64,000 bases of DNA from the NCBI GenBank assembly GCA_041661745.1, contig JBAZTR010000004.1, positions 12,961 to 76,960 on the forward strand. The letters are read 5' to 3'. The DNA comes from Patescibacteria group bacterium. GTDB lineage: Bacteria > Patescibacteriota > Patescibacteriia > UBA9934 > GWF2-40-263. This document shows, piece after piece, positions 1,098 to 39,866 of this stretch; position 1 is the first letter of the stretch, and each line of letters starts with the position of its first letter. Under the pieces are notes generated by a model, which saw only the letters and a list, made by a program, of their open reading frames with translations, was not told the origin of the DNA and ran no database searches. The translations under genes were made by a program, and so were the position numbers.

Positions 1098-1140
1098 CCC
1101 TTCTCCCCTCTCCTTCGTAAGGAGAGGGGTTGGGGGGATC
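1098..1140. repeat. C/G-tract palindromic element (PE-C family): cccctctcc-ttcgtaa-ggagagggg
   Basis: Perfect 9-bp inverted repeat flanked by cctcacccc / ggttgggggg. The same family recurs at least 12 more times in the window. Confidence 0.8.
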
Positions 1141-1912
1141 ATCTCTTCTCACTCATATATCCGTTTGATCCCTCCCACGCCACATTAAATAATTGTCTAA
1201 TGGTATTTGCGAGGTCCACACTGGTAATAACAATGCCGATCATCTTTTCTTGAAACGAATACATGAACACATTATTTCCACGCACCGAGATGTCACCCTT
1301 CAAAGGAAACTTGTCGGTTGGGATCAAACGAACCTCGCCGCCGGGCAAGCTTGGCACCTTAGAAAAATCAGGTTCGTTCATGACCGCTAAAACACGATAC
1401 GAAACTTTATGTTCGCGAAGTGAATCAAGATGCTTAGCGCGATACTGAAAAAAAGAACGCAGTTGATCAACTTCATCAATATTAACAACTTGGATAAACT
1501 CGCCTTCAGTTTCTTCAAAAACTTTCATAACCGAAGCCACACCTTCGAAACCCTCCAGGTATCTAATCTGTGGCTTGTCGCCTTCGATGTTGTGAATGGC
1601 TAAAAGTTTTGGCATGACGGCCGACAGCTCGCGTTCTTTTTCTTCCAATTCCCTTTTCTGCAGGCGAAGAAGTGATAATAATTTATCCGGCGATTCGGCG
1701 GCAAAACGATTGCGTCCATCTTTAATAAAAGAACTGATCAGCCCGCGCTTAATCAGTCCATTGATAATCAAATAAGTTGTCGCCCGATTGACGTTGGATT
1801 TTTCGGAAATGTCTTGAATCGACGACAGACCTAATTGCAACGCTGCCAAATAAACAGCTGCTTCTTTATCAGAAAACCCAAAGTTTATTAGCTCTTTGGC
1901 AGCATATTCCAT
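1139..1912 (-). CDS. TrmB-family transcriptional regulator (sugar-responsive wHTH)
   Basis: N-terminal wHTH motif EAAVYLAALQLGLSSIQDISEKSNVNRATTYLIINGLIKRGLI plus a TrmB-like C-terminal domain. 257 aa. Confidence 0.7.
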   Translation of the reverse strand: MEYAAKELINFGFSDKEAAVYLAALQLGLSSIQDISEKSNVNRATTYLIINGLIKRGLISSFIKDGRNRFAAESPDKLLSLLRLQKRELEEKERELSAVMPKLLAIHNIEGDKPQIRYLEGFEGVASVMKVFEETEGEFIQVVNIDEVDQLRSFFQYRAKHLDSLREHKVSYRVLAVMNEPDFSKVPSLPGGEVRLIPTDKFPLKGDISVRGNNVFMYSFQEKMIGIVITSVDLANTIRQLFNVAWEGSNGYMSEKR

Positions 1913-2985
1913 AAAGCTTCCCAGGTCTGTTTAACGGTTTTGTCCCATGAAAATTGTTTGACGCACGCCAGTCCCTTGGTTGAAAGATTGTCCAAGATGC
2001 CGGGCTCGCGAGCGGTGCGTGTTAGAGCGGCGGCCCACTGATCAGGGGCCATGGGTGGCACGAATTCCGCAGCCTCGCACATGACTTCGCGATGGGCCGG
2101 AATATTAGAGGCAATAACCGGCGTGCCCGAGGCAGCCGCTTCGAGTGGGGTTAAACCAAAACCTTCGTACCAACTTGGCGCCAGCAAAGCGCGAGCCCCG
2201 CCGACAAGAGCCGGCAAATCTTCGCGCGGCACAAAATCGAGCCACGAAATATAATCGGTATATGGCGATAGCGCCGCGGCTTTTTTAACTTCCTCACCGC
2301 GCCAACCAAGTCGACCGGCAAAAACTAAACGCATGGGATCGCCAAAACCCATGTTTTTTTTGAAGTCGTTAAAAGCCGGGACAAGCATGGCCGGATTTTT
2401 TTTAGCTTCAACACGGCCGACAAATAAAAAATAATTTTTGTATCCAAGACGATACTTATTTAAAACCGGCTCTAAGGCTTCCCGCCCGGCCTGGACAAAA
2501 AGTTTATCAGCCGCCAACGGAATGACAATTACTTTTTCCGGCTTGGCGTGAAAAAAATTAATGAGTTCGTTTTTGGTAAATTCACTCGGAGTAAAAATAA
2601 CATCAGCCCGTTTTACTGCCCGGCGCGTGGCGATATTTTGCCGACCAACCTCGGCATGGTGATACAAATCAGGACGGCTGCGAAAACCAACGTCGTGAAT
2701 AGTTGTGGCAACCTTAACTTTTTTTGGAATAAAAAACGGCAAACCTTGGCCAGGCACAAAAAATACGTTCGGCGGCCGGCGCCACAATTCCCAAGTAACC
2801 CGAAATTGCATCCAACCTCTTTTTAACGACCAACGAAGCGTGGAAAGATTATAAAGACGAAGTTCAACTTCGCCACCCATAATCGACAATTCCTTAAAAC
2901 CATCAACCATTTGCTTGGCGTATTCTTCCACGCCAGTGCGTTGTGGCTTTTCGGCTGATGATGAATCGATGGCGATTGTTATCAT
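1888..2985 (-). CDS. Glycosyltransferase family 4 (GT1-fold, group 1)
   Basis: C-terminal EGFGLTPLEAAASGTPVIAS motif typical of GT4 retaining glycosyltransferases. The track ORF extends to 3033, but the first 16 codons translate the upstream palindromic element. Met at 2985 (MITIAID…) is preferred. Confidence 0.75.
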   Translation of the reverse strand: MITIAIDSSSAEKPQRTGVEEYAKQMVDGFKELSIMGGEVELRLYNLSTLRWSLKRGWMQFRVTWELWRRPPNVFFVPGQGLPFFIPKKVKVATTIHDVGFRSRPDLYHHAEVGRQNIATRRAVKRADVIFTPSEFTKNELINFFHAKPEKVIVIPLAADKLFVQAGREALEPVLNKYRLGYKNYFLFVGRVEAKKNPAMLVPAFNDFKKNMGFGDPMRLVFAGRLGWRGEEVKKAAALSPYTDYISWLDFVPREDLPALVGGARALLAPSWYEGFGLTPLEAAASGTPVIASNIPAHREVMCEAAEFVPPMAPDQWAAALTRTAREPGILDNLSTKGLACVKQFSWDKTVKQTWEALWNMLPKS

Positions 2986-2993
2986 ATTTTTAG

Positions 2994-3072
2994 GTTTGAG
3001 TATGTAGTATGTAGTGGGTAGGCAATAGATCAAACTGAAACTTTTGCCTACATGCTACCTACTACATACTAC
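2994..3072. repeat. Palindromic element PE-Y (gtatgtagtatgtagtgggtaggcaatagatc … gcctacatgctacctactacatac)
   Basis: About 80-bp imperfect palindrome. Five copies in the window: 2994, 7645, 24395, 28241 and 34063. All lie immediately 5' of minus-strand gene starts. Confidence 0.85.
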
Positions 3073-3084
3073 CAACTACCGCCG

Positions 3085-4095
3085 CTAATTAGTAAAAATA
3101 CTTCGCTTGTAAGCCTCAAGGTTCTCCAAAGCTACACCAGTGCCCTTAGCCACACACAACTGCGGATCCTCGGCCACATAAACCGGCACGCCGGTGGCTT
3201 CGGAAATCAAACGATCTAAATTGCGAAGCTGGGCCGTACCACCGGAAAGGACAATACCCTTTTCCATAACATCGGCCGACAATTCCGGCGGGGTTTTGTG
3301 TAAAACCTCTTTTACCGTGGCTAAAATGCCTTCGAGTTCGTTTTGAATAGCTTCGGTTACGTCGTCGGAGGTGACCTCGATAATTTTAGGCAAGCCGGTT
3401 ACCATGTCGCGCCCTTTAATTTCCATGACTAATTTTTCTGGCAAATACATGGCTGAACCAATGCGGATTTTAATATCTTCCGAAGTTCGCTCACCAATAG
3501 CCAGACCATACTTACGGCGAACAAATTCAGAAATGGCCGCATCAAATTTAACCCCGCCAATTCTAATTGATTCGGATGAGACAATACCACCTAAGGATAA
3601 GACCGCCATTTCAGAAGTTCCGCCACCAATATCAATAATCATGTGACCAGATGGCGAACCAATGGGAATATTGGCACCAATGGCCGCGACAATCGGTTCC
3701 TTAATAACATAGGCGGCGCGGGCCCCGGCCGCCAAAGTGGCGTCAATAACCGCGCGACGTTCGACCGAAGTAATTCCCCCAGGCACGGCCACCATAACTT
3801 CAGGCCGAAAAATACGAACACCACCGACAGCTTTGTTAATAAAATAACGGAGCATGGCCTCGGTGGTGTGATAATCGGCGATAACGCCGTCCTTAAGCGG
3901 ACGACGAGCAATAATTGTGTCCGGCGTACGGCCAATCATTTCTTTAGCTTCACGACCAACCGCCAAAACTTTTTTATCGACTTTAGAAACTGCCACTACT
4001 GATGGCTCATTGATAATAACGCCTCGTTTAGGCAAGTAAACGAGGACAGTGGTGGTTCCAAGGTCAATTCCGATTTTCTTTATAAACATACTCAA
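3085..4095 (-). CDS. mreB: Rod shape-determining protein MreB (actin-like ATPase)
   Basis: IGIDLGTTTV… N-terminus and full-length actin/Hsp70 fold motifs (DIGGGTSE, GIVLSGGTAQL). 336 aa. Confidence 0.9.
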   Translation of the reverse strand: MSMFIKKIGIDLGTTTVLVYLPKRGVIINEPSVVAVSKVDKKVLAVGREAKEMIGRTPDTIIARRPLKDGVIADYHTTEAMLRYFINKAVGGVRIFRPEVMVAVPGGITSVERRAVIDATLAAGARAAYVIKEPIVAAIGANIPIGSPSGHMIIDIGGGTSEMAVLSLGGIVSSESIRIGGVKFDAAISEFVRRKYGLAIGERTSEDIKIRIGSAMYLPEKLVMEIKGRDMVTGLPKIIEVTSDDVTEAIQNELEGILATVKEVLHKTPPELSADVMEKGIVLSGGTAQLRNLDRLISEATGVPVYVAEDPQLCVAKGTGVALENLEAYKRSIFTN

Positions 4096-4154
4096 TCATT
4101 TCCCCCTTGTTACGCCGAAGTCGAGCTTAGCTCGACAAATCCAGCTAAGCTGGA

Positions 4155-7644: not shown

Positions 7645-7726
7645 GGGTTTGAGCATGTAGTAGGTAGTATGTAGGCAAAAGTTCCCGATTAGATCTATTG
7701 CCTACCCACTACATACTACATACTAA
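7645..7726. repeat. Palindromic element PE-Y (reverse orientation)
   Basis: Reverse complement of the 2994 copy: tagtaggtagtatgtaggcaaaagtt…gatctattgcctacccactacatactacatac. Confidence 0.85.
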
Positions 7727-8837: not shown

Positions 8838-8839
8838 AA

Positions 8840-10502: not shown

Positions 10503-10600
10503 GTCTATTTTTCCTCTTCCCCTCTACCCCTGCCCTCTCCTTCCCAAGGAGAGGGAGATCTCGTGGGCGCTCGACGCGGGGCTGTTTGTTTTTCTTCTCT
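10503..10600. repeat. PE-C family element (cccctgccctctcc-ttcccaa-ggagagggag) plus conserved tail gctcgacgcggggctgtttgttttt
   Basis: Inverted repeat plus a tail shared with 11040 and 17860. Confidence 0.75.
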
Positions 10601-10956: not shown

Positions 10957-11128
10957 TTATTTTCTTCCTCTCCCCCTCTATCCCCCTCTCCAAGTCCCTC
11001 TCCCCAACCCTCCCCCACTGCGGCAGTGAGGGAGGGAGATCTCGTAAGTGCTCGACGCGGGGCTATTTGTTTTTTAAAAAACCCTTCGTCCACTTCGTCC
11101 CCCTCAACCCCTTCGTCCCCCAAATCTT
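10957..11128. repeat. Compound PE-C element plus conserved 85-nt module
   Basis: cccctctccaagtccctctcccc…gggagggagatctcgt, then gtgctcgacgcggggctatttgttttttaaaaaacccttcgtccacttcgtccccctcaaccccttcgtcc. The second part recurs inverted at 17797..17885. Confidence 0.8.
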
Positions 11129-12110: not shown

Positions 12111-12215
12111 TTCTTTATTTTTTTAATCTTTCCTCCCCGCAAATCCCTCTCCCCTTACCCTCCCCCGTCGTGGCGACGAGGGAGGGAGAACTCACAGGAT
12201 CTCTGCTGATCCACC
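12111..12215. repeat. PE-C family element (ccctctcccc…cccgtcgtggcgacgagggagggaga)
   Basis: C/G-tract arms around a cgtcgtggcgacg palindrome. Confidence 0.7.
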
Positions 12216-16359: not shown

Positions 16360-16445
16360 ATTCCCCTCCATCCTCCCACTTTCAAACGAAAAGATCAACC
16401 CAATTTAAACCTCCTCCCACCTCACCCCTGCCCTACCAAAATATC
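16360..16445. repeat. PE-C-like C-tract element (ttcccctccatcctccc…cctcctcccacctcacccctgccctacc)
   Basis: C-tract words shared with the PE-C family. Confidence 0.5.
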
Positions 16446-16505: not shown

Positions 16506-16856
16506 ATGAAAGATATGGAAAAGAAACTAACAATTGGTCTATTTGCTTCCGCTGTTTTAATAATGGGGTTTTTGTTTTTCCTCGCAAACAAAACAAACAT
16601 AGTCGAAAGTAACTCAGCTGAATGTTCTGAAAACCAAAAAACCCTAATAATCAATTCCACTAACACCCTACGTTTTCCAGCTCAATTTGGTTGGGAAGGC
16701 CACACGGTCTTAATTCGCAACCAAGCCGATCAACCAATTGACAGCATGTACCCAAATCAAATCTGCGATACCGACGAAGAAGGAATTTTAGAAAAAATAA
16801 CTTCGGTAAAATTCAACGGTTTAAAAATCATAGATGAAATCTGGATTAAGGAATAA
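16506..16856 (+). CDS. Small secreted/membrane-anchored protein
   Basis: N-terminal signal/TM (KLTIGLFASAVLIMGFLFFLA). 116 aa. Confidence 0.45.
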   Translation: MKDMEKKLTIGLFASAVLIMGFLFFLANKTNIVESNSAECSENQKTLIINSTNTLRFPAQFGWEGHTVLIRNQADQPIDSMYPNQICDTDEEGILEKITSVKFNGLKIIDEIWIKE

Positions 16857-16917
16857 ATATCTTTCACAAACCTTCCGAGAGACCGGGAGGTTTTTTAAAT
16901 TAACAAAAATCCAATCA

Positions 16918-16946
16918 TTGACAAAAACCAATTTCTCCCCTACTCT
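16918..16946 (+). promoter_or_regulatory. Sigma70-like promoter ttgaca-N17-tactct for the alpha-CTD-like gene
   Basis: ttgaca at 16918 and tactct after a 17-nt spacer. GGAGGA Shine-Dalgarno sits 4 nt before ATG 16977. Confidence 0.5.
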
Positions 16947-16976
16947 GCCCACATCAAACCGGGTTCTGGAGGAAAT

Positions 16977-17282
16977 ATGTCCGACCAGTTTTATGGACTC
17001 AACGACCGAGAGTTGGAACTTCTTCTGAAGAGCGTGGACGACTTCAAAATGTCGACCCGACTCAGAAACTGCTGCGAGCACGCTGGGGTGGGATGGGTGT
17101 GGCAGATGGTCAAGCTCAACAAAGCCGAGCTGCTCGCCGAAGAGCCGCGGCGCTTCGGTCCCAAGTCGATCAAGGAGATGGAGGAACTTCTCTTGCCTAT
17201 CGGTCTTTCCATGGGCCGCAACTTCACCAGGGAGCAGCTGACGTTCCTCAACGGCTGTTCCAATCCGGCCGGTACGGCCTAA
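16977..17282 (+). CDS. Stand-alone RNA polymerase alpha-subunit C-terminal-domain (alpha-CTD)-like HhH protein
   Basis: STRLRNCCEHAGVGWVWQMVKLNKAELLAE-PRRFGPKSIKEMEELLLPIGLSMG aligns to E. coli RpoA alpha-CTD [54 protein letters not shown]. GC-rich, 101 aa. Confidence 0.65.
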   Translation: MSDQFYGLNDRELELLLKSVDDFKMSTRLRNCCEHAGVGWVWQMVKLNKAELLAEEPRRFGPKSIKEMEELLLPIGLSMGRNFTREQLTFLNGCSNPAGTA

Positions 17283-17372
17283 CCACATCTCGCTCTCCAC
17301 TGTTTTCTGGTGGAGTTTTTTAAATCTCTCAAAAAAAAATAAAACCTCAGCAGTGCTGAGGCAGAAGTCAGT
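17283..17372. terminator. Bidirectional intrinsic terminators between convergent alpha-CTD-like genes
   Basis: ctccactgttttctggtggag+T6 for the plus gene. cctcagcagtgctgagg followed on the minus strand by ttttattttttttt for the minus gene. Confidence 0.7.
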
Positions 17373-17385
17373 GACGAACGGACGA

Positions 17386-17718
17386 TCAGGTCCGTCGGGC
17401 GTTGAGGGCATGCTCGAGGCCACGGAAGGCTCGGCTGAACTCGCGAGCCCCCTCGATGAGGCTCGGGTGGTCCAGGGCTTCCACCTTGGCGGCGATCTCA
17501 GGGTCGTCCGGGATCTGGGGCAGGCCGAGCCGGTTGAGCTGGCGGTTGATGCAGCGCCAGGTGTCTTGGCCGTAGCCGCGCCGGTGAGCGAGGTCGCGAC
17601 GGGTGAGCTGGGTCACATCGCCGGCCGTGCAGCAGTGGTGGCGCGCGGCGAGGTAGTTGACGAGGTTGCGATCGAAACCGGCTTCGACAAGCAAAAGCGA
17701 GGCGGAATCTTGACACAT
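17386..17718 (-). CDS. Stand-alone alpha-CTD-like HhH protein (paralog)
   Basis: NLVNYLAARHHCCTAGDVTQLTRRDLAHRRGYGQDTWRCINRQLNRLGLPQ follows the same alpha-CTD pattern, including a Cys pair. GC-rich, 110 aa. Confidence 0.6.
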   Translation of the reverse strand: MCQDSASLLLVEAGFDRNLVNYLAARHHCCTAGDVTQLTRRDLAHRRGYGQDTWRCINRQLNRLGLPQIPDDPEIAAKVEALDHPSLIEGAREFSRAFRGLEHALNARRT

Positions 17719-17796
17719 GTAATCTCCGGGGTTGGGGGCGACAAAAGGTTTGTATCAAAAAAAACAAAATTGATCAACTTGCTTGGGAGTTTTTTA

Positions 17797-17885
17797 ATTT
17801 AGAAAAGGACGAGGGGTTTGAGGGGGACGAAGAGGACGAAGTGTTTAAAAAACAAAAAGCCCCGCGTCGAGCACCGAAGGACAGC
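17797..17885. repeat. Conserved 85-nt module, inverted copy of 11040..11128
   Basis: Its reverse complement reads gtgctcgacgcggggctttttgttttttaaacacttcgtcctcttcgtccccctcaaacccctcgtcc. Confidence 0.8.
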
Positions 17886-18779: not shown

Positions 18780-18960
18780 AATATATTTTATCCTCACCAG
18801 TGCCCCCCCCGTTTCCCCTCACCCTTACCCTCTCCCTGCCAAGATCAGATGGGAGAGGGGGTGGTGTTATTTCGTCACAGGGGATTCCCCTCCCCCATCT
18901 GCTTTTTTAGCAGGGGGAGGGGTTAGGGGAGAGGGGCCAACAACACGAACGGGGCGGCGC
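18780..18960. repeat. Compound PE-C palindromic module (inter-cassette element, copy 1)
   Basis: ccctctccctgccaagatcagatgggagaggggg … cccctcccccatctgcttttttagcagggggaggggttaggggagaggggcc. Near-identical modules at 19741..19900 and 21541..21750. Confidence 0.85.
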
Positions 18961-18968: not shown

Positions 18969-18997
18969 TGGACACAAATTCAAAGACATGCTAAAAA
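18969..18997 (+). promoter_or_regulatory. Conserved cassette promoter tggaca-N17-taaaaa
   Basis: tggaca at 18969..18974 and taaaaa at 18992..18997. The same motif with identical spacing recurs at 19903 and 20557. Confidence 0.6.
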
Positions 18998-19030
18998 AGT
19001 ATGCCCCCTTTTAGAAAAAGGAAAGAAACC

Positions 19031-19720
19031 ATGCAGGACACCATTAAGCATCTTCTCCTTATTGCCCGACTCACAGCACTGGCCAACAAGGTCAACGGAG
19101 TGATCACCGATAAAAGGCAGGAAAAGACGATCACAAAGCTGATCATGGGGGGATTGGTTCGCACTATCCTCTGGGGCGTGCTCTGGTACGTTCCACTCTG
19201 GCTTCTGGGGGACCCTTCGTTCCTTATGAAGCTCCTCTGGGCCAACCTGATCGTCAGCGCGATGCTCTTCGTTGTGCACGCAGTTGTTCCAAGCAACGTG
19301 ATCACTCGAAGGATGCAGCGGCAAAAGATTAAGACGAAAGGACCTATGGCGATCTTCGGTCTGTTCATTGTCATCTTCTTCATGCCCACAGCATTACTCT
19401 TCGCGGTGAAGGCGGGCGACCAGTACCAGGAGGTCTTGGCCGGCAAAATCCTGCGCGACGACCGGGCCACGCTCTTTTCGCGAAACGGACATCTGATCAA
19501 ACTCGTTGAGGAGTATTTTGTGAGGTCTGGAAAAGAGATGGACAAAACCGTCATGGATCAGGTCTGGGTGCTGGAGCAGGAGCTGCTCGACTTTTCCGAG
19601 CGAACTGGCGAGCTCGGCGAAAGCAACGAAATCACCTGGCCGGAGACCGAGCCTTTCCTCAGAAGAGTTGAGAGGCTGATCGACGAACTCACTGTCTTGA
19701 CTGGCAACACTTCCTCTTAA
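19031..19720 (+). CDS. GC-rich cassette gene 1: membrane protein (3–4 TM) with cytoplasmic C-terminal domain
   Basis: The track ORF starts at 19001, inside the promoter. Met at 19031 after AAGGAAAG is preferred. TM segments are LVRTILWGVLWYVPLWLL, LLWANLIVSAMLFVV and IFGLFIVIFFMPTALLFAV. GC is about 58%. Confidence 0.55.
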   Translation: MQDTIKHLLLIARLTALANKVNGVITDKRQEKTITKLIMGGLVRTILWGVLWYVPLWLLGDPSFLMKLLWANLIVSAMLFVVHAVVPSNVITRRMQRQKIKTKGPMAIFGLFIVIFFMPTALLFAVKAGDQYQEVLAGKILRDDRATLFSRNGHLIKLVEEYFVRSGKEMDKTVMDQVWVLEQELLDFSERTGELGESNEITWPETEPFLRRVERLIDELTVLTGNTSS

Positions 19721-19742
19721 CCCTCACCTGAGGGATTTTTTA
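19721..19742 (+). terminator. Cassette terminator cctcacctgagg + T-run
   Basis: Conserved hairpin (atcctca-cc-tgaggat) plus a T-tract after each of the three cassette genes, at 19721, 20484 and 21511. Confidence 0.6.
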
Positions 19743-19900
19743 TTCCCTCTCCTTCTGACGGCCATACCCCTCACCCCCTGCCCCTCTCCCTGCCAAGATC
19801 AGAGGGGAGAGGGGTTGTAAACTTTGTCACGAAAAGTTCCCCTCCCCCATCTGCTTTTTTAGCAGGGGGAGGGGTTAGGGGAGAGGGGCCAACACATGAG
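19741..19900. repeat. Compound PE-C palindromic module (inter-cassette element, copy 2)
   Basis: Near-identical to 18780..18960. Confidence 0.85.
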
Positions 19901-19902
19901 GG

Positions 19903-19931
19903 GAGGGCTTTCTGGACACAAACCAAAAACA
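19903..19931 (+). promoter_or_regulatory. Conserved cassette promoter tggaca-N17-taaaaa
   Basis: Same motif and spacing as at 18969. Confidence 0.6.
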
Positions 19932-19981
19932 ATGTTAAAAACACAAAAGTCGGCAAGCCTCTCGGCGGTGCGGAGGGAAAG

Positions 19982-20434
19982 ATGAAAATCGAACTAACCA
20001 CTCGTATGAGCGTACGTGTGGTCACGGGCGATCTGTCGGCAGACGTCCACCTCGAGGATCGTCGTTTGAAAGCACTGATTGCCCTCGCGTATAAATTCAA
20101 GGGTGAATGCGTCACCCTTGTCATCGATCCGATGATGGAAGAGGAAGCGACCTCGATCATCGACTCGATCGCGGGTCTCAACGGTGAGGGAGCCGACCAG
20201 ACAATCAACGGCCGACGCCTGGATGTGCACGAGCTCAGGGTTGATTGCGGAAACCAGCGCGGTATTGTCGTGAACCCCCACAACCCGAGATGCGATCTGC
20301 TTCTCCTCATGAGCATCGCAATCAAATCAGAACAGCTCACCGTCGAACTGCCGCCAACCGACACCATGGCCGAACTCGTCGACCGAATCTCGGTCTACCC
20401 CTTCCCGCACAAGGAAAGGGTCATGCCAGAATAA
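19982..20434 (+). CDS. GC-rich cassette gene 2: hypothetical soluble protein (150 aa)
   Basis: GGAGGG Shine-Dalgarno 5 nt upstream. GC about 60%. No domain recognised. Confidence 0.55.
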   Translation: MKIELTTRMSVRVVTGDLSADVHLEDRRLKALIALAYKFKGECVTLVIDPMMEEEATSIIDSIAGLNGEGADQTINGRRLDVHELRVDCGNQRGIVVNPHNPRCDLLLLMSIAIKSEQLTVELPPTDTMAELVDRISVYPFPHKERVMPE

Positions 20435-20483
20435 CTTAGCCACGCTGTAGCTCGCCACGAGCGAAGGCGGGACGCCACCCTCT

Positions 20484-20509
20484 CGATCCTCACCTGAGGA
20501 TCTTTTTAT
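20484..20509 (+). terminator. Cassette terminator (gatcctcacctgaggatc + T5)
   Basis: Conserved hairpin plus T-tract. Confidence 0.6.
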
Positions 20510-20550
20510 TTCTGGCTGGTCTCCTACTCTCCCAGCTTCCTAGTCTCCTA
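20505..20550. repeat. PE-T family fragment (ctcctactctcccagcttcctagtctcctaaca)
   Basis: Shares ctcctag/cctagtctcc words with the elements at 22166, 33533 and 41294. Confidence 0.5.
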
Positions 20551-20556
20551 ACACTC

Positions 20557-20585
20557 TGGACACAAATCCAAAACTATGATAAAAA
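20557..20585 (+). promoter_or_regulatory. Conserved cassette promoter tggaca-N17-taaaaa
   Basis: Same motif and spacing as the other two cassette promoters. Confidence 0.6.
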
Positions 20586-20622
20586 TCTGGGTCGCAAATT
20601 CCGCGCGACTCTGGAGGATTCC

Positions 20623-21492
20623 ATGAACGTAATCCATGATGGAGAAACCGGAGGCATCCGGGTGTTCTTCGGGGAAACCGTGATCGACATCGACCCCCGC
20701 GATCCGCGCTGTCATGGGCTGCTCAACGACCGGGGGTTCATGAAGATCGCCAACATCAAGTGCGGTTCGATCTTGATCGTCTTCGGCCGGAGCTTGAGGA
20801 CGAAGACGGCCCGCATGATGGGCGAGATCATGTTCGGCTGGACCCTCACCAATTCCTCGAACTCGCAAATCGTCGCCGAAAGAGGGGTGCGTGTGAGGAT
20901 CGGCGGCTGGAAGCCCATGCCCGTGCCGCACAACTGCGATATGTTCGAGCTCCTCGAACACGCGGACGCGCTGTACTTCGACACGATGGAGATCCGAACG
21001 AAGGCTTCGGAGGTGGCAGCCAGGGCCTTGGGGCCGTTCATCATGATCCCCTTCGTTCCGCCCGAGCCGACCCCGAGCGAACTGGCCATCGCCGAGTTCA
21101 GGAGAAGGACCGGCGTGGAGCCGACTTCGGTGCTGCTCGAAGCAGAGGCCGAGGATGCTCCCGAACCACCGGTGGCGGTTCCGGCTGGCGCCGAAGCGAA
21201 CTCCCCCATCCCCGGCCTCACGCCGGAGCAGGTCAAGAACCTGATCAGGCGATGCGACGAGCTGGGGTTCACCACTCGTGTGACGAACGGCCTCAGGACC
21301 GTCGGATGTGAATTCGTCTACCAGGTGGTGGAAAAAACCGGACCCGAGACGCTCGGGGCCAAGGGCCTCGGTCGCAGGTCCAATAATGAGCTCAGGGTGA
21401 TTCTCGCCGAACTCGGGCTCAGCTTCGGCATGAACTTCACCACCGAACAGCGAGCCGCTCTCGAGCGCCTGGCTCACCAGCTGCCGCGCTGA
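20623..21492 (+). CDS. GC-rich cassette gene 3: two-domain protein with C-terminal alpha-CTD-like HhH domain
   Basis: The C-terminus TTRVTNGLRTVGCEFVYQVVEKTGPETLGAKGLGRRSNNELRVILAELGLSFGMNFTTEQ parallels ORFs 16977 and 17386. The N-terminal 200 aa have no recognisable domain. GGAGGA Shine-Dalgarno. Confidence 0.6.
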   Translation: MNVIHDGETGGIRVFFGETVIDIDPRDPRCHGLLNDRGFMKIANIKCGSILIVFGRSLRTKTARMMGEIMFGWTLTNSSNSQIVAERGVRVRIGGWKPMPVPHNCDMFELLEHADALYFDTMEIRTKASEVAARALGPFIMIPFVPPEPTPSELAIAEFRRRTGVEPTSVLLEAEAEDAPEPPVAVPAGAEANSPIPGLTPEQVKNLIRRCDELGFTTRVTNGLRTVGCEFVYQVVEKTGPETLGAKGLGRRSNNELRVILAELGLSFGMNFTTEQRAALERLAHQLPR

Positions 21493-21510
21493 TCGCCCCC
21501 CCCTCCCCTT

Positions 21511-21537
21511 CGATCCTCACCTGAGGATCTTTTTTTA
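21511..21537 (+). terminator. Cassette terminator (gatcctcacctgaggatc + T7)
   Basis: Conserved hairpin plus T-tract. Confidence 0.6.
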
Positions 21538-21540
21538 ATT

Positions 21541-21750
21541 CCCTCTCCTTCTGAGCCGTTGTACCCCTCACCCATACCCCCGTGCCGATGTCACCCCCCC
21601 CCTCACCCCTGCCCCTCTCCCTGCCAAGATCAGAGGGGAGAGAGGTTGTAGACTTTGGCACAAAAAGTTCCCCTCCCCCATCTGCTTTTTTAGCAGGGGG
21701 AGGGGTTAGGGGAGAGGGGCCAACACGTGAGGGGAGGATTGAGGAGAGGG
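21541..21750. repeat. Compound PE-C palindromic module (copy 3, extended)
   Basis: Near-identical core to 18780 and 19741, with additional C-tract arms. Confidence 0.85.
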
Positions 21751-21953
21751 CCGACTGGACATCCTAATAGCATCTGGTAAACTAAAAATATTATGAAAGG
21801 CTTAACCGCCCAATTTGGCTTCTTTAGCTTCTGCTTTACCAAAGCGGGTGGTTTAGTTCTCTCTTAAAAGATAAATAAGAGGCCGCCCGCGTTCCCACGC
21901 GAGCGGTCTTTTGTTTTGTCCCTGATCCCGTAACCAGGCAAGGAGGAAAAGTC

Positions 21954-22115
21954 ATGGCCGCCACGAACCAAAACCGTGAAGATCCGCGTCGCTACACTGA
22001 AACGACCGACACTACCGGACAGCGTCTGGCCGTTGATCAGGACGGCAACAAGTTCCTTCTTCGGGCGGACCAGATCGTCTACAACGGTCAGGTCTACAAT
22101 CTCGGGGGCTTCTAG
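21954..22115 (+). CDS. Small GC-rich protein (53 aa), not in the ORF track
   Basis: AAGGAGGA Shine-Dalgarno 5 nt upstream of the ATG. A clean terminator follows at 22129..22157 (ggcagaa-aacac-ttctgcc + T7). Sequence: MAATNQNREDPRRYTETTDTTGQRLAVDQDGNKFLLRADQIVYNGQVYNLGGF. Confidence 0.45.
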   Translation: MAATNQNREDPRRYTETTDTTGQRLAVDQDGNKFLLRADQIVYNGQVYNLGGF

Positions 22116-23666: not shown

Positions 23667-23720
23667 AGAAATTTCCCCTCCCCTTACGAAGGGGAGGGGT
23701 TAAGGGGTGAGGTTAGGACG
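23662..23720. repeat. PE-C element (cccctcccc-ttacgaa-ggggagggg-ttaaggggtgagg)
   Basis: Perfect 9-bp inverted repeat of the PE-C family. Confidence 0.8.
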
Positions 23721-24394: not shown

Positions 24395-24477
24395 TTAGTG
24401 GGTAGGTGTGTAGTAGGTAGTATGTAGGCAAAAGTTCCCGACTAGATCTATTGCCTACCCACTACATACTACATACT
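24395..24477. repeat. Palindromic element PE-Y
   Basis: Same orientation as the 7645 copy. Confidence 0.85.
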
Positions 24478-28240: not shown

Positions 28241-28322
28241 TTTAGGTTCGAGTATGTAGTATGTAGTGGGTAGGCAATAGATTTAATGAAACTTTTGCCT
28301 ACATACTACCTACTACGTACTA
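28241..28322. repeat. Palindromic element PE-Y
   Basis: Lies between rplJ and rplL, immediately 5' of the rplL start. Confidence 0.85.
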
Positions 28323-28866: not shown

Positions 28867-29109
28867 ATAGTATCGACCTTTAGAATTAAAATGTTTGATT
28901 TTGGATTCAGACATTTTAATTTTTAAATAAAAACTGCGGAATAAAGCCGCAGGAAACAATCTATCTGGAAGATCCAGATTTTTTGCCTCGACGAGACTTA
29001 TGCCTTTTGGGCGACTCGTGTTCTACGGCTATCTTTAGTTCGAAAACAGTATAAATCAAAAAGAAAAAGGCGTCAAGAGGACGCCAGGAAGCAAGGAGCA
29101 CGAAGCCGA

Positions 29110-29458: not shown

Positions 29459-30346
29459 TTAAATCTTCTGGCACTTGGGGCAGTAGGCACTGCCCCGCCC
29501 GCCGACTTTAATTTTTTTTAAAATAGTTTTACAACGCCGGCATGACTGCCCTTCCCGACCATAAACTTTTAATTGTTTTTGAAAAGTTCCTTCTTTTCCA
29601 AAAGCATCGATGTAAGCGTCGGCCGAAGTGCCGTGTGCGGCAACGGCTTTTTTTAAAACAGAAACCGTGCCTTGATAAAGTTTTTTCATTTGCTCGTCGG
29701 AAATCTTGCCAACCAAGGTCATGGGGTGAATTCCGGCAAACCACAAAGCTTCAGAGGCGTAAATGTTGCCAATGCCGGCAATGCAGGTTTGATCCAAAAG
29801 ATGGGGTTTAATTTTTTTCTTGGGGGCCGAACGCAAACACATGGCCATTTTTTGCCAAGTAAAACTTTTGTCGAGCGGCTCGGGCCCGTAAGCTTGGGCC
29901 TCAAGATATTCTTCCAAACCTTTCTTATCAACCAATTTCAAAAAACCGAATTTACGAAAATCATTCCAATGCATTTCCTTGCCGCCAGACAATTTGAAAA
30001 TGACGTGTGTATGTTTGTCGACTCCACTTTCCCCTCCCACTTCTTGTCCCGCCGAAGCCCGGCGAAGGAGGATGGGGGAGGGGTTAGGGGTGAGGGATCT
30101 AACCAAAAATCGACCCGACATTTTTAAATGTGCCAAAATAAAATAATCACCGGAAAGTTTAAAAATCAAAAGCTTGGCTCGGCGTTCAACGCCGATAAAC
30201 TTTTTTCCTTTAAGAAGTTGAACAAATTTTTTGGGTGGCAAATTAAGCCGTCCGGAAAAATTGACGACAACATCTTTTATAGTCGCACCAACAATTGCTT
30301 GAGAGAGCTGACGACGAACGGTTTCGACTTCTGGTAATTCTGGCAT
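29459..30346 (-). CDS. mutM: Formamidopyrimidine-DNA glycosylase (Fpg/MutM) carrying an in-frame PE-C insertion
   Basis: N-terminal MPELPEVETVRR and C-terminal zinc finger CRRCKTILKKIKVGGRGSAYCPKC. About 27 extra residues (SLTPNPSPILLRRASAGQEVGGESGVD) are encoded by PE-C repeat sequence at 30017..30100. Confidence 0.85.
   Translation of the reverse strand: MPELPEVETVRRQLSQAIVGATIKDVVVNFSGRLNLPPKKFVQLLKGKKFIGVERRAKLLIFKLSGDYFILAHLKMSGRFLVRSLTPNPSPILLRRASAGQEVGGESGVDKHTHVIFKLSGGKEMHWNDFRKFGFLKLVDKKGLEEYLEAQAYGPEPLDKSFTWQKMAMCLRSAPKKKIKPHLLDQTCIAGIGNIYASEALWFAGIHPMTLVGKISDEQMKKLYQGTVSVLKKAVAAHGTSADAYIDAFGKEGTFQKQLKVYGREGQSCRRCKTILKKIKVGGRGSAYCPKCQKI
30017..30100. repeat. PE-C element inserted in-frame within mutM
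   Basis: …cccctcccacttcttgtcccgccgaagcccggcgaaggaggatgggggaggggttaggggtgaggg… lies inside the mutM reading frame. Confidence 0.8.
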
Positions 30347-30382
30347 ACAGTGCCACGCCGGAGCCTGAAAGGCGAAGGCAGG

Positions 30383-32305: not shown

Positions 32306-33472
32306 TCAGGCCGAGTACGAAGCGTCGAGGATCCCTTCCCAGTCGAGGTCGGGGTCGAAGGGGTCGATCACCGCGTTCCGGAAAGCCGAGAAGACGTCGG
32401 AGACCGAAAGTTCGTTGAGAAGCATCTCCTTGATCGTCGGCGTCGGACGCGAACGGAGTTGGTCGGCGATGGCGGCCAAGTCCTCATCACACAAAAGGGC
32501 GAACAAAGCCGTGGTGTTCACCTCTGGCATAATTTCGGCCAGGGCGTCGTAGACCGCTCCGAAGATGGCGTGGCCATGATCGGAAGGGTTGTTGATCGGG
32601 TAGAACTTGTACATGTGCCGACGTGCTTCTTCGAAGAGTCCGAAGGTCGGACCACGGCTGAAGGAAACTGCTCCAACTTCGGCCGACTCGCGAACCAGGG
32701 CGACGATGCAACGGGCGACTCGCTCACGCTGGCTTGCCCCCAACTTGTGCATAGCCTTGTGGATTTCCGCCATCTCGCTTTCTTCGAGACAGATCCAGCA
32801 ACCACCCTTCTGTATACGAATGACATCGTTGTAGTCGGCGAAGAGGTAGGCGATCTTGTCAGCGAACATGACGATCGCTTCCTCGAGCGAGAGGATGCCG
32901 GTAGTGAGATCTTTGGCCCCGCGCGAATGGCGATGCATGACTTGGAGCGTCTGCTTGGTCAGGTTAAGACCATGACCGGAACGCTCAATGTGCTGGGCCA
33001 CGACCAGTCCAAAAACCTCGTGACGGAAAGATCGGCCGGTTTTCTTGGCCAGAAACATTTCACCGGTATGGCCGAGCGGCGTGTGACCGATGTCGTGGCC
33101 AAGGGCCCCGGCCAAACAGAGCCACGGGTTGGCCCCAAGGGCAAAGGCCAGGGCGACGGCGATCGAGCAGACCTCGTCAGTGTGCGAACGCCTGGTACGA
33201 ATATGGAGATTGGTCGGGTCGGGCACAACCTGGGTGTGCCTGGCCGAACGACGCAGACCACGGCTTTGCATAAGCTTCAACGCCGCGTCAATCATGTATG
33301 GATCGATGCCCGGCTGACCGATGAAGATCCCATCGCCATCGTTGTCACGGTGAATGCGCCGGACCGCGACCTCGGGACCAGTGGCCAGGTGTTTAAGGCA
33401 GCCAATGAACGGCCGGAGCTCGTTGCGGAGGAGTCGAACATCTTCAGGGGAAATGATGGAGAGCAGGTTCAT
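32306..33472 (-). CDS. HD-domain dGTPase-family (Dgt-like) triphosphohydrolase, GC-rich
   Basis: RSHTDEVCSIAVALA…GALGHDIGHTPLGHTGE matches the dGTP triphosphohydrolase family H…HD…D signature. GC is about 60%, against about 44% background. Confidence 0.65.
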   Translation of the reverse strand: MNLLSIISPEDVRLLRNELRPFIGCLKHLATGPEVAVRRIHRDNDGDGIFIGQPGIDPYMIDAALKLMQSRGLRRSARHTQVVPDPTNLHIRTRRSHTDEVCSIAVALAFALGANPWLCLAGALGHDIGHTPLGHTGEMFLAKKTGRSFRHEVFGLVVAQHIERSGHGLNLTKQTLQVMHRHSRGAKDLTTGILSLEEAIVMFADKIAYLFADYNDVIRIQKGGCWICLEESEMAEIHKAMHKLGASQRERVARCIVALVRESAEVGAVSFSRGPTFGLFEEARRHMYKFYPINNPSDHGHAIFGAVYDALAEIMPEVNTTALFALLCDEDLAAIADQLRSRPTPTIKEMLLNELSVSDVFSAFRNAVIDPFDPDLDWEGILDASYSA

Positions 33473-34062: not shown

Positions 34063-34150
34063 GAGTATGTAGTAAGTAGTGGGTAGGCAATAGATCTAAT
34101 TGGGAACTTTTGCCTACATACTACCTACTACTTACTACAATACTACATAC
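34063..34150. repeat. Palindromic element PE-Y
   Basis: Same orientation as the 2994 copy. Confidence 0.85.
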
Positions 34151-35016: not shown

Positions 35017-35017
35017 A

Positions 35018-36953: not shown

Positions 36954-36976
36954 CTTGCGCCGCTGTTTTTTATAAA

Positions 36977-37008
36977 CAAAAACCACCGAGATAATCTTGG
37001 TGGTTTTT
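36977..37008. terminator. Bidirectional intrinsic terminator (aaaaaccaccgagataatcttggtggttttt)
   Basis: Hairpin flanked by A-run and T-run, lying between convergent genes. Confidence 0.7.
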
Positions 37009-37022
37009 ATTTTTACAAAATT

Positions 37023-37646
37023 TTACTTTTTATCTTCCACGGTCACTTTAACCATTTCATCACCAATTTTTATTTGATCAACAACCTCCAAACCTTCGGT
37101 TACTCGACCAAAGATGGTGTATTTCTTGGGCAGTGGGGTATCGGCCAACATGATAAAGAATTGCGAACCGTTGGTGTTGCTACCGGCGTTAGCCATGGCC
37201 ACTATGCCGCGTTCATAAGTATAATCGTCGCTTAATTCATCATTAAATCTATAACCAGGACCACCGCGACCAGTGCCGAGCGGGTCACCACCTTGAATTA
37301 CAAAACCTTCATCACGACGATGAAAAATCAAACCATCGTAATAACCCTCATTGGTTAAATAAACAAAGTTGGAAACCGCCATTGGCGCAGTTTCATTATA
37401 AAGTTCAAAAACAATATCACCTTTGGCCGTGGTAATACGGACCTGTTTGTTTTGGATTTGGTCGTTCGTTAAAACGCCGGGGAAAGTATAAATTTTTACA
37501 GGATTCACAGCGGTTGAAGTAGTAACCGACGAATTAATATTAGTTGGAGTTGTTGAATTTGCCGCTGACTGCGTGTCGGTATTACCGCAACCGCTAAGCA
37601 AAAGCAAAGACAGCGCCAGAAGCGCTACTGATTTATTTAACTTCAT
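37023..37646 (-). CDS. Cyclophilin-type peptidyl-prolyl cis-trans isomerase, lipoprotein
   Basis: Lipobox LLLLSGC at the N-terminus. Cyclophilin motifs FHRRDEGFVIQGGDP and GIVAMANAGSNTNGSQFFI. Confidence 0.85.
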   Translation of the reverse strand: MKLNKSVALLALSLLLLSGCGNTDTQSAANSTTPTNINSSVTTSTAVNPVKIYTFPGVLTNDQIQNKQVRITTAKGDIVFELYNETAPMAVSNFVYLTNEGYYDGLIFHRRDEGFVIQGGDPLGTGRGGPGYRFNDELSDDYTYERGIVAMANAGSNTNGSQFFIMLADTPLPKKYTIFGRVTEGLEVVDQIKIGDEMVKVTVEDKK

Positions 37647-37892
37647 AGTTTTAAATCATTGTTTGAAGCAGAAAGAACGAAAGAGCAACAACTAATCCAC
37701 CAAAAATTATGTGAACGACCGATTCGATTTCACCGGTCTGGCCACAGCAATTGCCGCAGCAACATTTTTCCTTGGCCGCCATTTTTTTGGCGGAAACTTT
37801 TTTTGGCATATCCCCCTAGTGATTATTTTGTTTTAATTATTGACTTGGGTTATTATACCAGAGGAGCTAAAAAAATAAAATGTGGAAAAATT

Positions 37893-38456
37893 ATGACATA
37901 CGAAGCTAAAAATTTCGAACACTTAATAGGTTTGCCGGGGATTAGCGAGGTTTTGTTAAAAAACCATTTCACGTTATACCAGGGTTACGTGACAAATGTG
38001 AATAAACTGGCCGAAAAATCCGGGACAATTGAAATCGGTTCATTGGAATATGCCGAACTCAAACGTCGTTTTGGTTGGGAATGGAACGGAATGTATTTGC
38101 ACGAACTTTATTTTGGTAACTTAACCAAAGACTTCAAGCCTTTGAATCCGGAAAGTGATTTGTATAAAAAAATAACCGAAAGATTCGGTTCTTACGAAAA
38201 CTGGGAAAAAGATTTTCGAGCCACGGCGGCCATGCGCGGCATTGGTTGGGTAATTCTGGCCGCTGACAAAACCGAAGGAAGACTTTTTAATGTCTGGATT
38301 GGCGAACATGATGTTGGGCATCTCGCCGGCACCACACCACTTTTGGTTATGGATGTTTTTGAACACGCTTTTATGCTTGACTATGGCACCAAGCGCGCCG
38401 ATTACATCGAAGTTTTTATGAAAAATATTGATTGGTCAGCAGTGGAAAAAAGATAA
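37893..38456 (+). CDS. sodA: Fe/Mn superoxide dismutase
   Basis: GWEWNG…WVILA…DVFEHAF metal-binding signature. The track ORF starts at 37659, so Met at 37893 is preferred. Confidence 0.8.
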   Translation: MTYEAKNFEHLIGLPGISEVLLKNHFTLYQGYVTNVNKLAEKSGTIEIGSLEYAELKRRFGWEWNGMYLHELYFGNLTKDFKPLNPESDLYKKITERFGSYENWEKDFRATAAMRGIGWVILAADKTEGRLFNVWIGEHDVGHLAGTTPLLVMDVFEHAFMLDYGTKRADYIEVFMKNIDWSAVEKR

Positions 38457-39500
38457 TTATTCCCACGGCAAACCTTCTCGCCCAAACTGTCCGTAAACGG
38501 AAACCGCGCGATACCGCGGTTTCTTTAAATCCATTTTTTCGACAATGTCGTCAAGGTTAAAATTATAATTTTGTTTAACGTATTCCAAAAGAGTTCCCCC
38601 TCCCTCACTGGGGGAGGGCTGGGGAGAGGGATTTGAAGATTTGACGTCAATCATTACCGGTTCGGAACGTCCCAGAGTGTAAGTCAAAGAAACAACAGCC
38701 GAATCAGCCTTCCCTTCCTTAACCAATTGCTTGGCAACATATCTGGCCATGTAAGCTCCGGCCCGTTCGGCTCGCTGAGGATCCTTGCCAATAGGCGAAG
38801 AATCGCCGTGCGGTACCAGCCCGCCATAAAAATCCGCGGCCGCGCGTCGACCACTTACCCCAGCCTCGGACTGAAAACCTTGGGTAGAAAATTGCCCAAT
38901 GGGATTTATAAAAATTTGCGCTTGCTCGCCGCCAATAATCGGGGCTACCACACGCTCCAACAAACGGGCTTGAACATCAATCGGAGCAACGTCTGCCGCG
39001 TGACTGGCTAAAAGGGTTACGGCCGAAACTTTTTTCCCTTCCATTACCACTTGTGCTTTACCATCAGCTCCCAGCCAGTGAAACGAAGGGTCGAGTCGGC
39101 GCAAATCATCAAGACGACGAACCAAACCTTGGGCCAGAACCATAGGAAGTGGAAGAAACTCACGCGTCTCGCGGGTGGCGTAACCGTTCACGACAACCGT
39201 GTCGTACGAACCGTGTATTTTTTTTATTTCCTCGGAAGAACTTTCGATATTTACAAAAACTTCAATTTCATCAGAATAACCAATTTCGTGATACATTTGT
39301 TTGGCCAACGAGGCCACGTCAAAATCGGCCGTGGAATTAACTTCCCCGCCAACCATAACCATGCCGTGTGAACCCAAAACTTTAATGTCCAAACGGCTGT
39401 CCGGATCGCGCCGCAAATATTCATCAACAATACCGTCGGCGATTTGATCGCAGATTTTATCAGAATGTCCGGCACAAAGTGCTTCAACGGTTTTCGACAT
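38457..39500 (-). CDS. metK: S-adenosylmethionine synthetase (bacterial type) with in-frame PE-C insertion
   Basis: GHSDKICDQIADGIVDEYL N-terminus. About 14 extra residues (SNPSPQPSPSEGGG) are encoded by the PE-C repeat at 38593..38640. Confidence 0.8.
   Translation of the reverse strand: MSKTVEALCAGHSDKICDQIADGIVDEYLRRDPDSRLDIKVLGSHGMVMVGGEVNSTADFDVASLAKQMYHEIGYSDEIEVFVNIESSSEEIKKIHGSYDTVVVNGYATRETREFLPLPMVLAQGLVRRLDDLRRLDPSFHWLGADGKAQVVMEGKKVSAVTLLASHAADVAPIDVQARLLERVVAPIIGGEQAQIFINPIGQFSTQGFQSEAGVSGRRAAADFYGGLVPHGDSSPIGKDPQRAERAGAYMARYVAKQLVKEGKADSAVVSLTYTLGRSEPVMIDVKSSNPSPQPSPSEGGGTLLEYVKQNYNFNLDDIVEKMDLKKPRYRAVSVYGQFGREGLPWE
38593..38640. repeat. PE-C element inserted in-frame within metK
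   Basis: ccccctccctcactgggggagggctggggagaggg lies inside the metK reading frame. Confidence 0.75.
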
Positions 39501-39609
39501 ATAGCGGCCTTAGGTTAACAACTTTTTCTGGTAAAAGCAACCCTACCTTTAAGGAGTTACTGTTTCCTGTTAAGATAAAATCGAACAATAACTATTAATA
39601 AATTTTATA

Positions 39610-39783
39610 TGGAATTATCTGAAGTCGCCTCGATCTTAGAAAGTCTAAGAGAAAAGGTCGGGAGTATGGAAACAAAAGTTCGAGATATTGAAAGTTACAT
39701 GGTTAAAAAAGACCACCTTGACGGAAGAATCACTGAAATTAAAGATGAACTTTCCGACATAAAAGCCGCGTGCGCAAAATAAA
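39610..39783 (+). CDS. Small coiled-coil protein (57 aa), not in the ORF track
   Basis: ATG 39610 … TAA 39781–39783, giving MELSEVASILESLREKVGSMETKVRDIESYMVKKDHLDGRITEIKDELSDIKAACAK. A PE-C palindrome and terminator follow. Confidence 0.35.
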
Positions 39784-39866
39784 TCTGCTTCCCCTCTCCT
39801 TACGAAGGAGAGGGGTGTAGGGGTGAGGTAAACAAAAAACCATCCTTTCTTAGGGTGGTTTTTTGT
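39783..39866. repeat. PE-C element (cccctctcc-ttacgaa-ggagagggg-tgtaggggtgagg) plus terminator hairpin
   Basis: Perfect 9-bp inverted repeat, then aaccatcctttcttagggtggtttttt. Confidence 0.8.

Follow-up and report, generated by a model that had tools for sequence, protein, structure and literature searches.

The window analyzed here was a 64,000-nt stretch of contig JBAZTR010000004.1 (assembly GCA_041661745.1) from a Patescibacteria group bacterium, and it harbored 14 complete units of a three-block C/G-tract palindromic repeat (six of them arranged as three inverted pairs) plus one remnant. These repeats were assigned with high confidence to a known kind of element, designated BoxC, potential intrastrand triplex (PIT) element, or TMECO, here in a variant form and in a new host; in this bacterium of the candidate phyla radiation (CPR), they probably spread as short selfish or neutral repeats, perhaps by way of host replication/repair. 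Two of the units were integrated in frame into the host genes fpg and metK, and these in-frame copies, together with the recurrently targeted protein loops, are noteworthy additions to the known BoxC family.

Each unit displayed the layout 5'-CCCYCYCC pyrimidine (Y) arm–loop–GGRGRGGG purine (R) arm–2-4 nt–GGGG[T/A]GRGG; the last was a second purine block (R*, hereafter the third block) that mirrored the purine arm, an A there being matched by A or T (e.g., GGAGAGGGG, 4 nt, and then GGGGTGAGG), and CCCCTCTCCTTACGAAGGAGAGGGGTGTAGGGGTGAGG exemplified a unit sequence. The strict three-block search (Y arm, loop of 3-40 nt, complementary R arm, spacer of 1-6 nt, and mirror-symmetric third block, with at most one mismatch in the hairpin and at most one in the mirror block) identified 14 units in the window but none in 30 shuffles, the block order Y, R, R* being present in 14/14 and the opposite topology (R*, R, Y) in no copy of the window; an explicit search of this kind is better suited than a covariance model to a first loop that varies and a third block that does not follow Watson-Crick pairing. 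The counts of single parts were likewise in excess: (i) CCCCTCTCC occurred 12 times in the window versus 0.27 expected; (ii) the tail GGTTAGGGGTGAGG with at most two mismatches occurred 12 times versus 0.20 expected; and (iii) C-arm/G-arm hairpins gave 18 raw matches versus 0.34 in shuffles that kept local composition. No copy was found past 39.9 kb of the window by the word, tail, and three-block searches, and the density across the window was 21.9 units per 100 kb. The units were 32-64 nt in size, with first loops of 5-37 nt, which often lengthened the stem (e.g., ccactg-cgg-cagtga and ctgct-tttt-agcag), and second loops of 2-4 nt. In the computed folding as single-stranded DNA, the Y and R arms formed a 9-13 bp hairpin at -12 to -13 kcal/mol (z, -3 to -4.5), while the third block stayed unpaired. 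No Rfam family covered the units at gathering or E-value thresholds, and a weak mir-1759 match at 19787-19868 was rejected as a chance match to the palindrome.

The following copies were recognized in the window (span and strand first; limits from the strict search in parentheses):
1092-1129, (-) (1093-1129): intergenic simple unit CCCCTCTCC-ttacgaa-GGAGAGGGG-agaa-GGGGTGAGG, located 10 nt past the stop of a TrmB-like gene (1139-1912, -) and adjoined by a terminator-like hairpin plus T-run at 1046-1075
10503-10555, (-) (10521-10555): unit CCCTCTCC-ttgggaa-GGAGAGGG-cagg-GGTAGAGG plus an extra G/A tract, between a pyrophosphatase-like gene and ahpC
10957-11036, (-) (10997-11036): extended-hairpin unit CCCTCCC-ccactg-cgg-cagtga-GGGAGGG, followed by several more G/A blocks
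12122-12186, (-) (12146-12186): unit in the DUF498/Bro-N spacer, with loop cgtcgccacgacg
16360-16440, no strand assigned: degenerate remnant composed of C tracts including cctcacccctgccct, without an intact hairpin and missed by the strict three-block search
18808-18936: compound unit 1, inverted pair 18817-18859(-) plus 18887-18933(+), between the divergent ygjP and a gene for a 229-aa open reading frame (ORF)
19766-19888: compound unit 2, inverted pair 19770-19814(-) plus 19839-19885(+), preceded by the terminator-like hairpin cctcacctgagg plus T-run
21566-21719: compound unit 3, inverted pair 21601-21644(-) plus 21670-21716(+), with an extra partial C-tract block upstream
23675-23712, (+) (23675-23711): simple unit CCCCTCCCC-ttacgaa-GGGGAGGGG-ttaa-GGGGTGAGG, filling the 46-nt spacer from the MS-channel stop to the GT2 start
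30031-30095, (+) (30031-30094): in-frame unit of fpg, whose structured first loop spans 37 nt
38598-38630, (+) (38598-38629): unit in frame within metK, encoding NPSPQPSPSEGGG
39791-39828, (+) (39791-39827): simple unit CCCCTCTCC-ttacgaa-GGAGAGGGG-tgta-GGGGTGAGG, upstream of metK, with a bidirectional terminator-like hairpin immediately after it at 39831-39867

When read directly, the sites displayed a hairpin with a C/T-only 5' arm and a G/A-only 3' arm, and then more G tracts. The initial annotation had described a C/G-tract palindrome family with simple and compound forms, and this family proved real (14 units versus 0 in shuffles). All its sites were genuine, except that the one at 16360 was a C-tract remnant without a hairpin; the 9-bp perfect inverted repeat that it placed around ttacgaa/ttcgtaa, followed by a G-tract tail, was found in the copies at 1105, 23675, and 39791, and the tail, although present, was the third block mirroring the purine arm rather than an appendage. 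The compound forms, described as concatenations of several hairpins, each consisted of an inverted pair of units separated by about 27 nt; each pair joined one GGGAGAGGG-type unit with one GGGGGAGGGG-type unit, and a core of about 110 nt was near-identical across the three compound units. The ORFs separated by the compound units showed no paralogy, and therefore the reading of the compound units as mere end points of a tandemly duplicated gene was rejected. Location at gene boundaries held for most units (12 were located in short spacers, several of them beside terminator-like hairpins) but not for the two inside genes.

The automatic call of the pyrophosphatase-like ORF overran the unit at 10957-11036, but its Pfam domain began past an internal Met, and thus this copy was probably 5' untranslated region rather than coding sequence. 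The units at 10521 and 10997 bracketed this short ORF and shared an extra 40-nt flank (gagatctcgt..gctcgacgcggggct.tttgttttt, with the T-run at its end; 10556-10598 and 11037-11078), an arrangement that may represent a larger composite repeat or a local duplication.

The E. coli BoxC repeat of the 1990s, 5'-CCCTCNCCC-N3-6-GGGNGAGGG-N3-GGGNGAGGG, was renamed TMECO (Holder 2015, PMC4666352); according to the citations in PMC4666352, BoxC came from Bachellier et al. and was refound as a PIT element by Hoyne et al. 2000, whose criteria allowed loops of 0-10 nt. TMECO had 3610 occurrences in 262 proteobacterial genomes, including 23 copies in E. coli K-12 that were always intergenic and five times formed inverted pairs of unlike subtypes; it accompanied elevated local variability between strains or genomic instability; and it was a G/C-rich class II intrastrand motif, its isolated strand forming a purine-motif class II triplex in vitro as seen by circular dichroism (CD) and nuclear magnetic resonance (NMR) (PMC4666352). 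Polymerase blockage in vitro is also described in the literature.

The window units shared with BoxC/PIT/TMECO: (i) the block order Y arm, loop, R arm, loop, and mirror R block; (ii) in the copy at 18816-18859, exactly the arms CCCTCTCCC/GGGAGAGGG/GGGTGAGGG, along with a TTA/TAA second loop (TTA being the second loop of TMECO type A; PMC4666352); (iii) a dispersed multicopy distribution without strand bias and with inverted pairs of two unlike subtypes; and (iv) loci that differed between related genomes (here fpg, metK, and the MS-channel/GT2 spacer, with 0 copies in the relative L208; L and P numbers are handles for the sequences compared). The (-) member of compound unit 1, CCCTCTCCC-N14-GGGAGAGGG-taa-GGGTGAGGG, had exactly the E. 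coli TMECO arms, and the lldD-trmL pair of E. coli (cccctcaccctaaCCCTCTCCCtcaGGGAGAGGG ... CCCTCGCCCCtccGGGGAGAGGGccgGGGTGAGGGG) had essentially the arms of window 18808-18936 in the same inverted-pair layout: lldD-trmL read cccctcaccctaaCCCTCTCCC...GGGAGAGGG, and window 18808-18859 read cccctcacccttaCCCTCTCCC...GGGAGAGGG. The other window copies, with CCCCTCYCC/GGRGAGGGG/GGGG[TA]GRGG, carried the BoxC words shifted by one base, and the simple units, with their 7-nt loop and 9-bp arms, fell within the looser PIT limits on loop length.

The window units differed from BoxC/TMECO as follows: (i) most copies were in the shifted register CCCCTCYCC; (ii) the first loop was 5-37 nt and often hairpin-extending, versus 3-6 nt in TMECO; (iii) the density was about 40-fold that in E. 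coli K-12 (22 per 100 kb versus 23 per 4.64 Mb); and (iv) the host was a CPR bacterium. They also resembled the cyanobacterial triplex motifs of Microcystis, Nostoc, and Anabaena (PMC4666352), being likewise of G/C-rich class II, in high copy, and in moderate-GC genomes; for those motifs, PMC4666352 gave counts only and described neither coding-region copies nor insertion polymorphisms.

A pattern scan with one genome per species gave, among the matches listed, Planctomycetota, Chloroflexota, Cyanobacteria (Nostoc, Oscillatoria, Rivularia, and Aerosakkonema), Alpha-, Beta-, and Gammaproteobacteria, Ignavibacteria, Acidobacteria, Actinomycetota, Candidatus Nomurabacteria, and others. In 143 of these copies, drawn from about 120 species genomes across many phyla, the purine arm GGAGAGGGG was accompanied by a third block ending in GAGG in 92/94, and the arm GGGGAGGGG by one ending in GGGG in 34/37 (Fisher P = 1e-26), the covariation being located in a part of the block left unconstrained. 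Given the mirror symmetry, this cross-phylum covariation, and the published CD/NMR results on the E. coli motif, we infer that the window units can form an intrastrand triplex, in which the free third block would return to the purine arm and bind it through reverse-Hoogsteen triads (G*G:C and A/T*A:T).

Two host genes contained units in frame:
29459-30346, (-): fpg, formamidopyrimidine-DNA glycosylase, 295 aa versus 275-276 aa in empty-site relatives
38457-39500, (-): metK, S-adenosylmethionine synthetase, 347 aa versus 336-341 aa in empty-site relatives

The closest named relatives of both proteins were from Candidatus Uhrbacteria (Patescibacteria, CPR), and CPR Fpg proteins were typically 275 aa. 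The fpg copy encoded ...LTPNPSPILLRRASAGQEVGGES..., with the extra residues placed between HLKMSGRFLV and KHTH; in an AlphaFold model of the window Fpg (mean pLDDT, 88.5), the unit-encoded residues 87-107 had pLDDT below 50 and were predicted to make a disordered loop between two strands. The same site was empty in L004 and L005 (proteins 76-81% identical), which read ...TTSGASVD..., and occupied in the window, L206, L207, L333, and L334 in both orientations and in five different forms, those of the relatives being: (i) a 34-nt unit in L206, oriented as in the window; (ii) units of opposite orientation with first loop tgtcgccacgacg in L207 and L334; and (iii) a unit of opposite orientation with first loop ggcg in L333. 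At least three different insertions, in both orientations, are thus present in one Fpg loop across relatives. The loop subfamily (c/t)gtcgccacgacg was shared by the intergenic window copy at 12146 and the fpg copies of L207 and L334, and such loop subfamilies common to sites and genomes argue for copying from master copies over local de novo origin. Comparison of occupied with empty fpg junctions displayed no target duplication, and 15-24 nt of the original loop was replaced.

The MetK insert was present in the window and its four closest relatives and absent from the next four (81-83% identity); the metK site was empty in P0126-P0129 and L210, 39 nt in the window stood in place of 9 nt of the L210 empty site, and L211 contained a decayed orthologous copy. 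Peptides encoded by the in-frame copies included LTPNPSPILLR and SSNPSPQPSPSEGGG. Outside this lineage, an in-frame copy (SPPTPLLDKERGAKGEV) was found in dus of Candidatus Nomurabacteria (L077), and one or two were found in Pfam-supported ORFs, namely, Planctomycetota purA (L033), a pseudouridine-synthase ORF (L101), and a betaproteobacterial N-demethylase-like (HODM-like) ORF (L011); because the spanning-ORF test was unreliable at high-GC loci, cases were retained only if supported by a Pfam domain or by an unambiguous ORF context. Literature searches for palindromic in-frame elements of CPR turned up nothing relevant, and no report of coding-region copies or phage association of the BoxC-type motif was found in the literature searched.

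The Rickettsia palindromic elements (RPE; Ogata et al. 2000) reportedly constitute a further family of short palindromic repeats found both in intergenic regions and in frame in conserved genes, and they are said to be 100-150 bp, AT-rich, and confined to Rickettsia, adding a surface peptide while leaving the protein intact. The window units resembled them by in-frame insertion in conserved genes (fpg and metK here; dus, purA, and the pseudouridine-synthase and HODM-like ORFs elsewhere) but differed in being 32-64 nt, G/C-tract based, provided with a triplex-type third block, and hosted by Patescibacteria, and there was no sequence relationship. The Rickettsia elements are alluded to in a passage of PMC2267715.

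A third locus of presence/absence was the MS-channel/GT2 spacer, with an intact unit in the window and none at the syntenic spacer of L206 and L208; the syntenic 20.8 kb of L208 contained no unit at all. A looser link of the units to local sequence turnover holds through presence/absence at fpg, metK, and this spacer, in line with the genomic instability that publications have tied to motifs of this type. In the spacer of L208, a different perfect 24-bp palindrome (GGGGTGGGGCGAATTACAAATTTG/CAAATTTGTAATTCGCCCCACCCC; 17165-17230) was observed, and that of L206 contained a half-unit, GGAGGGGTTACGAA, beside GTAG-type repeats.

The units would act as non-coding, selfish or neutral interspersed repeats, each new copy arriving as a complete block of 32-64 nt and in either of the two orientations. 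The copying step could be carried out by host replication/repair on the folded single strand (fork stalling and template switching), with patch insertion replacing a few target bases; selection would then leave survivors in spacers beside terminators and in disordered surface loops with an open frame, and the by-products would be turnover of the local sequence and protein loops of varying length. Such a host mechanism is favored over a dedicated transposase, with low-to-moderate confidence, because no target-site duplication, terminal inverted repeat (TIR), or transposase was seen and target bases were replaced.

Several observations weigh against this reading of identity, fold, and spread. 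The strict TMECO pattern (first loop of 3-6 nt) matched none of the window copies, and the pattern with a relaxed first loop matched one (18816-18859, arms exact); this makes the window family a variant, its arms being shifted in register and its first loops longer and structured. Two window copies lay in frame in genes, whereas E. coli copies were 'always intergenic' (PMC4666352). For E. coli TMECO, in vivo dimethyl sulfate footprinting and double-stranded CD/NMR gave no stable triplex (PMC4666352). The covariation came from essentially two haplotypes, so that shared descent of two subfamilies could mimic it, and a purely structural constraint would leave the near-identity of arms across phyla unexplained. 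As regards spread, neither target-site duplications, terminal inverted repeats, nor a mobilizing enzyme were found; at the fpg and metK junctions, 9-24 nt seemed to have been replaced, unlike in a clean insertion; and mobility is suggested by presence/absence only.

Movement in trans by a transposase such as RAYT/Y1 HUH, with the units as REP/REPIN- or MITE-type non-autonomous transposons, is the best placed of the alternatives, although an unlikely one. The units resembled REP/REPIN in being short (REP, 20-40 nt), palindromic, multicopy, and extragenic, often arranged as inverted doublets, and located beside terminators; they were present or absent between relatives; and a Y1_Tnp gene was present in L207. 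This gene had its own unrelated flanking hairpins, CGCAGC-tnt-GCTGCG, and the L207 Y1 transposase was rejected as the unit mobilizer since these subterminal hairpins are its own. No transposase domain was present among Pfam matches to the genes of window 8-40 kb, and no RAYT (Y1 transposase) gene among those of window 1-40 kb. In the flanks of the 14 units, the 5' hairpin foot was free of any tetranucleotide of the GTAG type, and no TIRs beyond the hairpin were seen; occupied and empty sites of fpg and metK likewise displayed none of the MITE features (no duplication, no TIRs, and 9-24 nt of target replaced). REPs co-vary with lineage-specific RAYT, whereas the same arms recurred across many phyla here.

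A second, unrelated palindromic family of about 70 nt and GTAG-rich (AGTATGTAGTAGGTAGTATGTAGGCAAAAGTTC plus an inverted partner) was observed at 2999-3070, 7652-7724, 24406-24476, 28251-28321, and 34064-34136, with all copies in spacers; it was a better REP/RAYT-type candidate than the BoxC-type units. The IS200/IS605-type Y1 transposase gene of L207 (5412-5858) took the position held by the HD gene in the window and had an NmeDI-like endonuclease gene as its neighbor.

The initial annotation had proposed that the units delimit nearly every GC-rich island, acting as boundary or recombination sites that mobilize the islands. Three compound units did bracket ORFs in the GC-rich 18980-22096, the copy at 1093 abutted an island ending at 1069, and TMECO motifs have been tied to local genomic variability (PMC4666352). 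With islands defined as GC of at least 0.53 in 400-nt windows (12 islands and 23 scorable borders), however, 4/23 borders were within 300 nt of a unit versus a mean of 2.3 under random placement, an association that was not significant (permutation P = 0.20 for borders and 0.12 for elements), and at least seven islands had no nearby unit. The ORFs of the largest island were not foreign cargo. Beside the GT2 gene of L208 and L209, the corresponding position was occupied by a homologue of the 289-aa alpha-CTD-like protein, and the HD gene was 67-80% identical in L208 and L206; in the unit-free L208 region, the alpha-CTD-like gene, the HD gene, and a 227-aa ORF had GC of 0.54-0.59 versus 0.45 overall, the last occupying a neighboring position without detectable sequence similarity to the 229-aa ORF of the window. 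Gene-content differences among the window, L206, and L208 (AA_kinase and 149/503-aa ORFs) did not coincide with units. Because the syntenic genes are equally GC-rich in L208 without units, the islands are a native lineage feature rather than cargo bounded by units; their delimitation by units was thus not borne out, and a role of the units in island mobilization is quite improbable.

The GC-rich genes at 16821-17800, 19031-21492, and 32306-33472 (GC, 0.53-0.63 versus 0.46 overall) were syntenic and GC-rich in relatives; the 289-aa protein displayed an RNA-polymerase alpha-CTD-like domain and had a partial paralogue at 16995-17237. An amino-acid-kinase-family gene was located between a holin-like gene and fpg in L206 (9227-9919) and L208 (9172-9876) and was absent from the window (30347-30382), and the ORFs between xseA and xseB differed among the window and its relatives.

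Marginally less probable still is a set of functional cis-acting signals (terminators, mRNA-stabilizing 3' hairpins, or regulatory sites) selected position by position. Most copies were located in gene-end spacers, often beside terminator-like hairpins, and their own hairpins were stable; against this, orientation to transcription was mixed (four single units sense, four antisense, and three inverted pairs; by strand, four single (-) and four single (+)), a purine third block instead of a T-run followed the hairpin, unlike in an intrinsic terminator, two copies lay in frame inside genes, and syntenic spacers of relatives had no units. In E. coli, PIT elements acted neither as promoters nor as terminators (Hoyne & Maher 2002, as reported in PMC4666352), and the purine-motif triplex does not form in RNA (PMC4666352). 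A G-quadruplex built from four G tracts of the purine arm and third block is hardly tenable, since the GGGGAGGGG-tta-GGGGTGAGGG copies did hold four runs of at least three G, but the GGAGAGGGG-type copies (1093, 39791, and 10521) had only two such runs, the competing Y arm was always present, and the covariation was of the mirror type predicted by triads, not tetrads.

Spread as selfish or neutral BoxC-type repeats is thus the preferred reading, and a wider extension of it is tentative: BoxC-type motifs as mobile cross-phylum selfish elements of about 35 nt, with the three-block fold as the insertion substrate, that recolonize the same permissive protein loops in either orientation, as observed in Fpg and MetK and, in other phyla, in Dus, PurA, and the pseudouridine-synthase and N-demethylase-like ORFs. 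If so, mobile BoxC units would be a general, previously unrecognized source of in-frame loop insertions, possibly carried by phages between lineages. The BoxC/PIT repeats have been known since the 1990s with function and mode of spread unknown (PMC4666352), the E. coli copies being few, intergenic, and hard to study. The lineage of the window offers a high density, clean occupied and empty sites in conserved genes with junctions pinned by the reading frame, a single codon position hit independently several times and in both orientations, and loop subfamilies common to genomes, making the mobility and target of the units directly testable. For annotation, odd Pro/Ser- or Gly/Glu-rich peptides (PNPSP...GEG) in proteins from metagenome-assembled genomes are explained as repeat-derived, and such segments, as well as ORFs called across intergenic copies, call for caution.

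In 80 unrelated metagenome contigs, which were loci from an Fpg-alignment metagenome scan (among the matches listed, distant homologues only, 33-44% identity), the density was 0.49 units per 100 kb. L176 was the only unit-bearing contig among them, with four units in 8.4 kb at GC 0.38, and may derive from another CPR-like genome colonized by a BoxC-type family. IMG/VR viral contigs (L213-L292 among the matches listed; e.g., L224, L230, and L273 from UViG_3300020057_000061) also matched the triplex-motif pattern, one of them (43.5 kb) containing at least 11 copies, and phages or prophages may carry or accumulate such units.

Two RNA features of the window were additionally observed: (i) a ribosomal protein L10 leader-like structure at 28919-29046 (-), upstream of rplJ, with 41.7 bits versus the Rfam gathering threshold of 44 and (ii) a tRNA at 45532-45628 (+) within a GC-rich island, missed by ARAGORN but scored by Rfam at 50.6 bits, whose anticodon-loop region was interrupted by 31 extra nt, presumably an intron.

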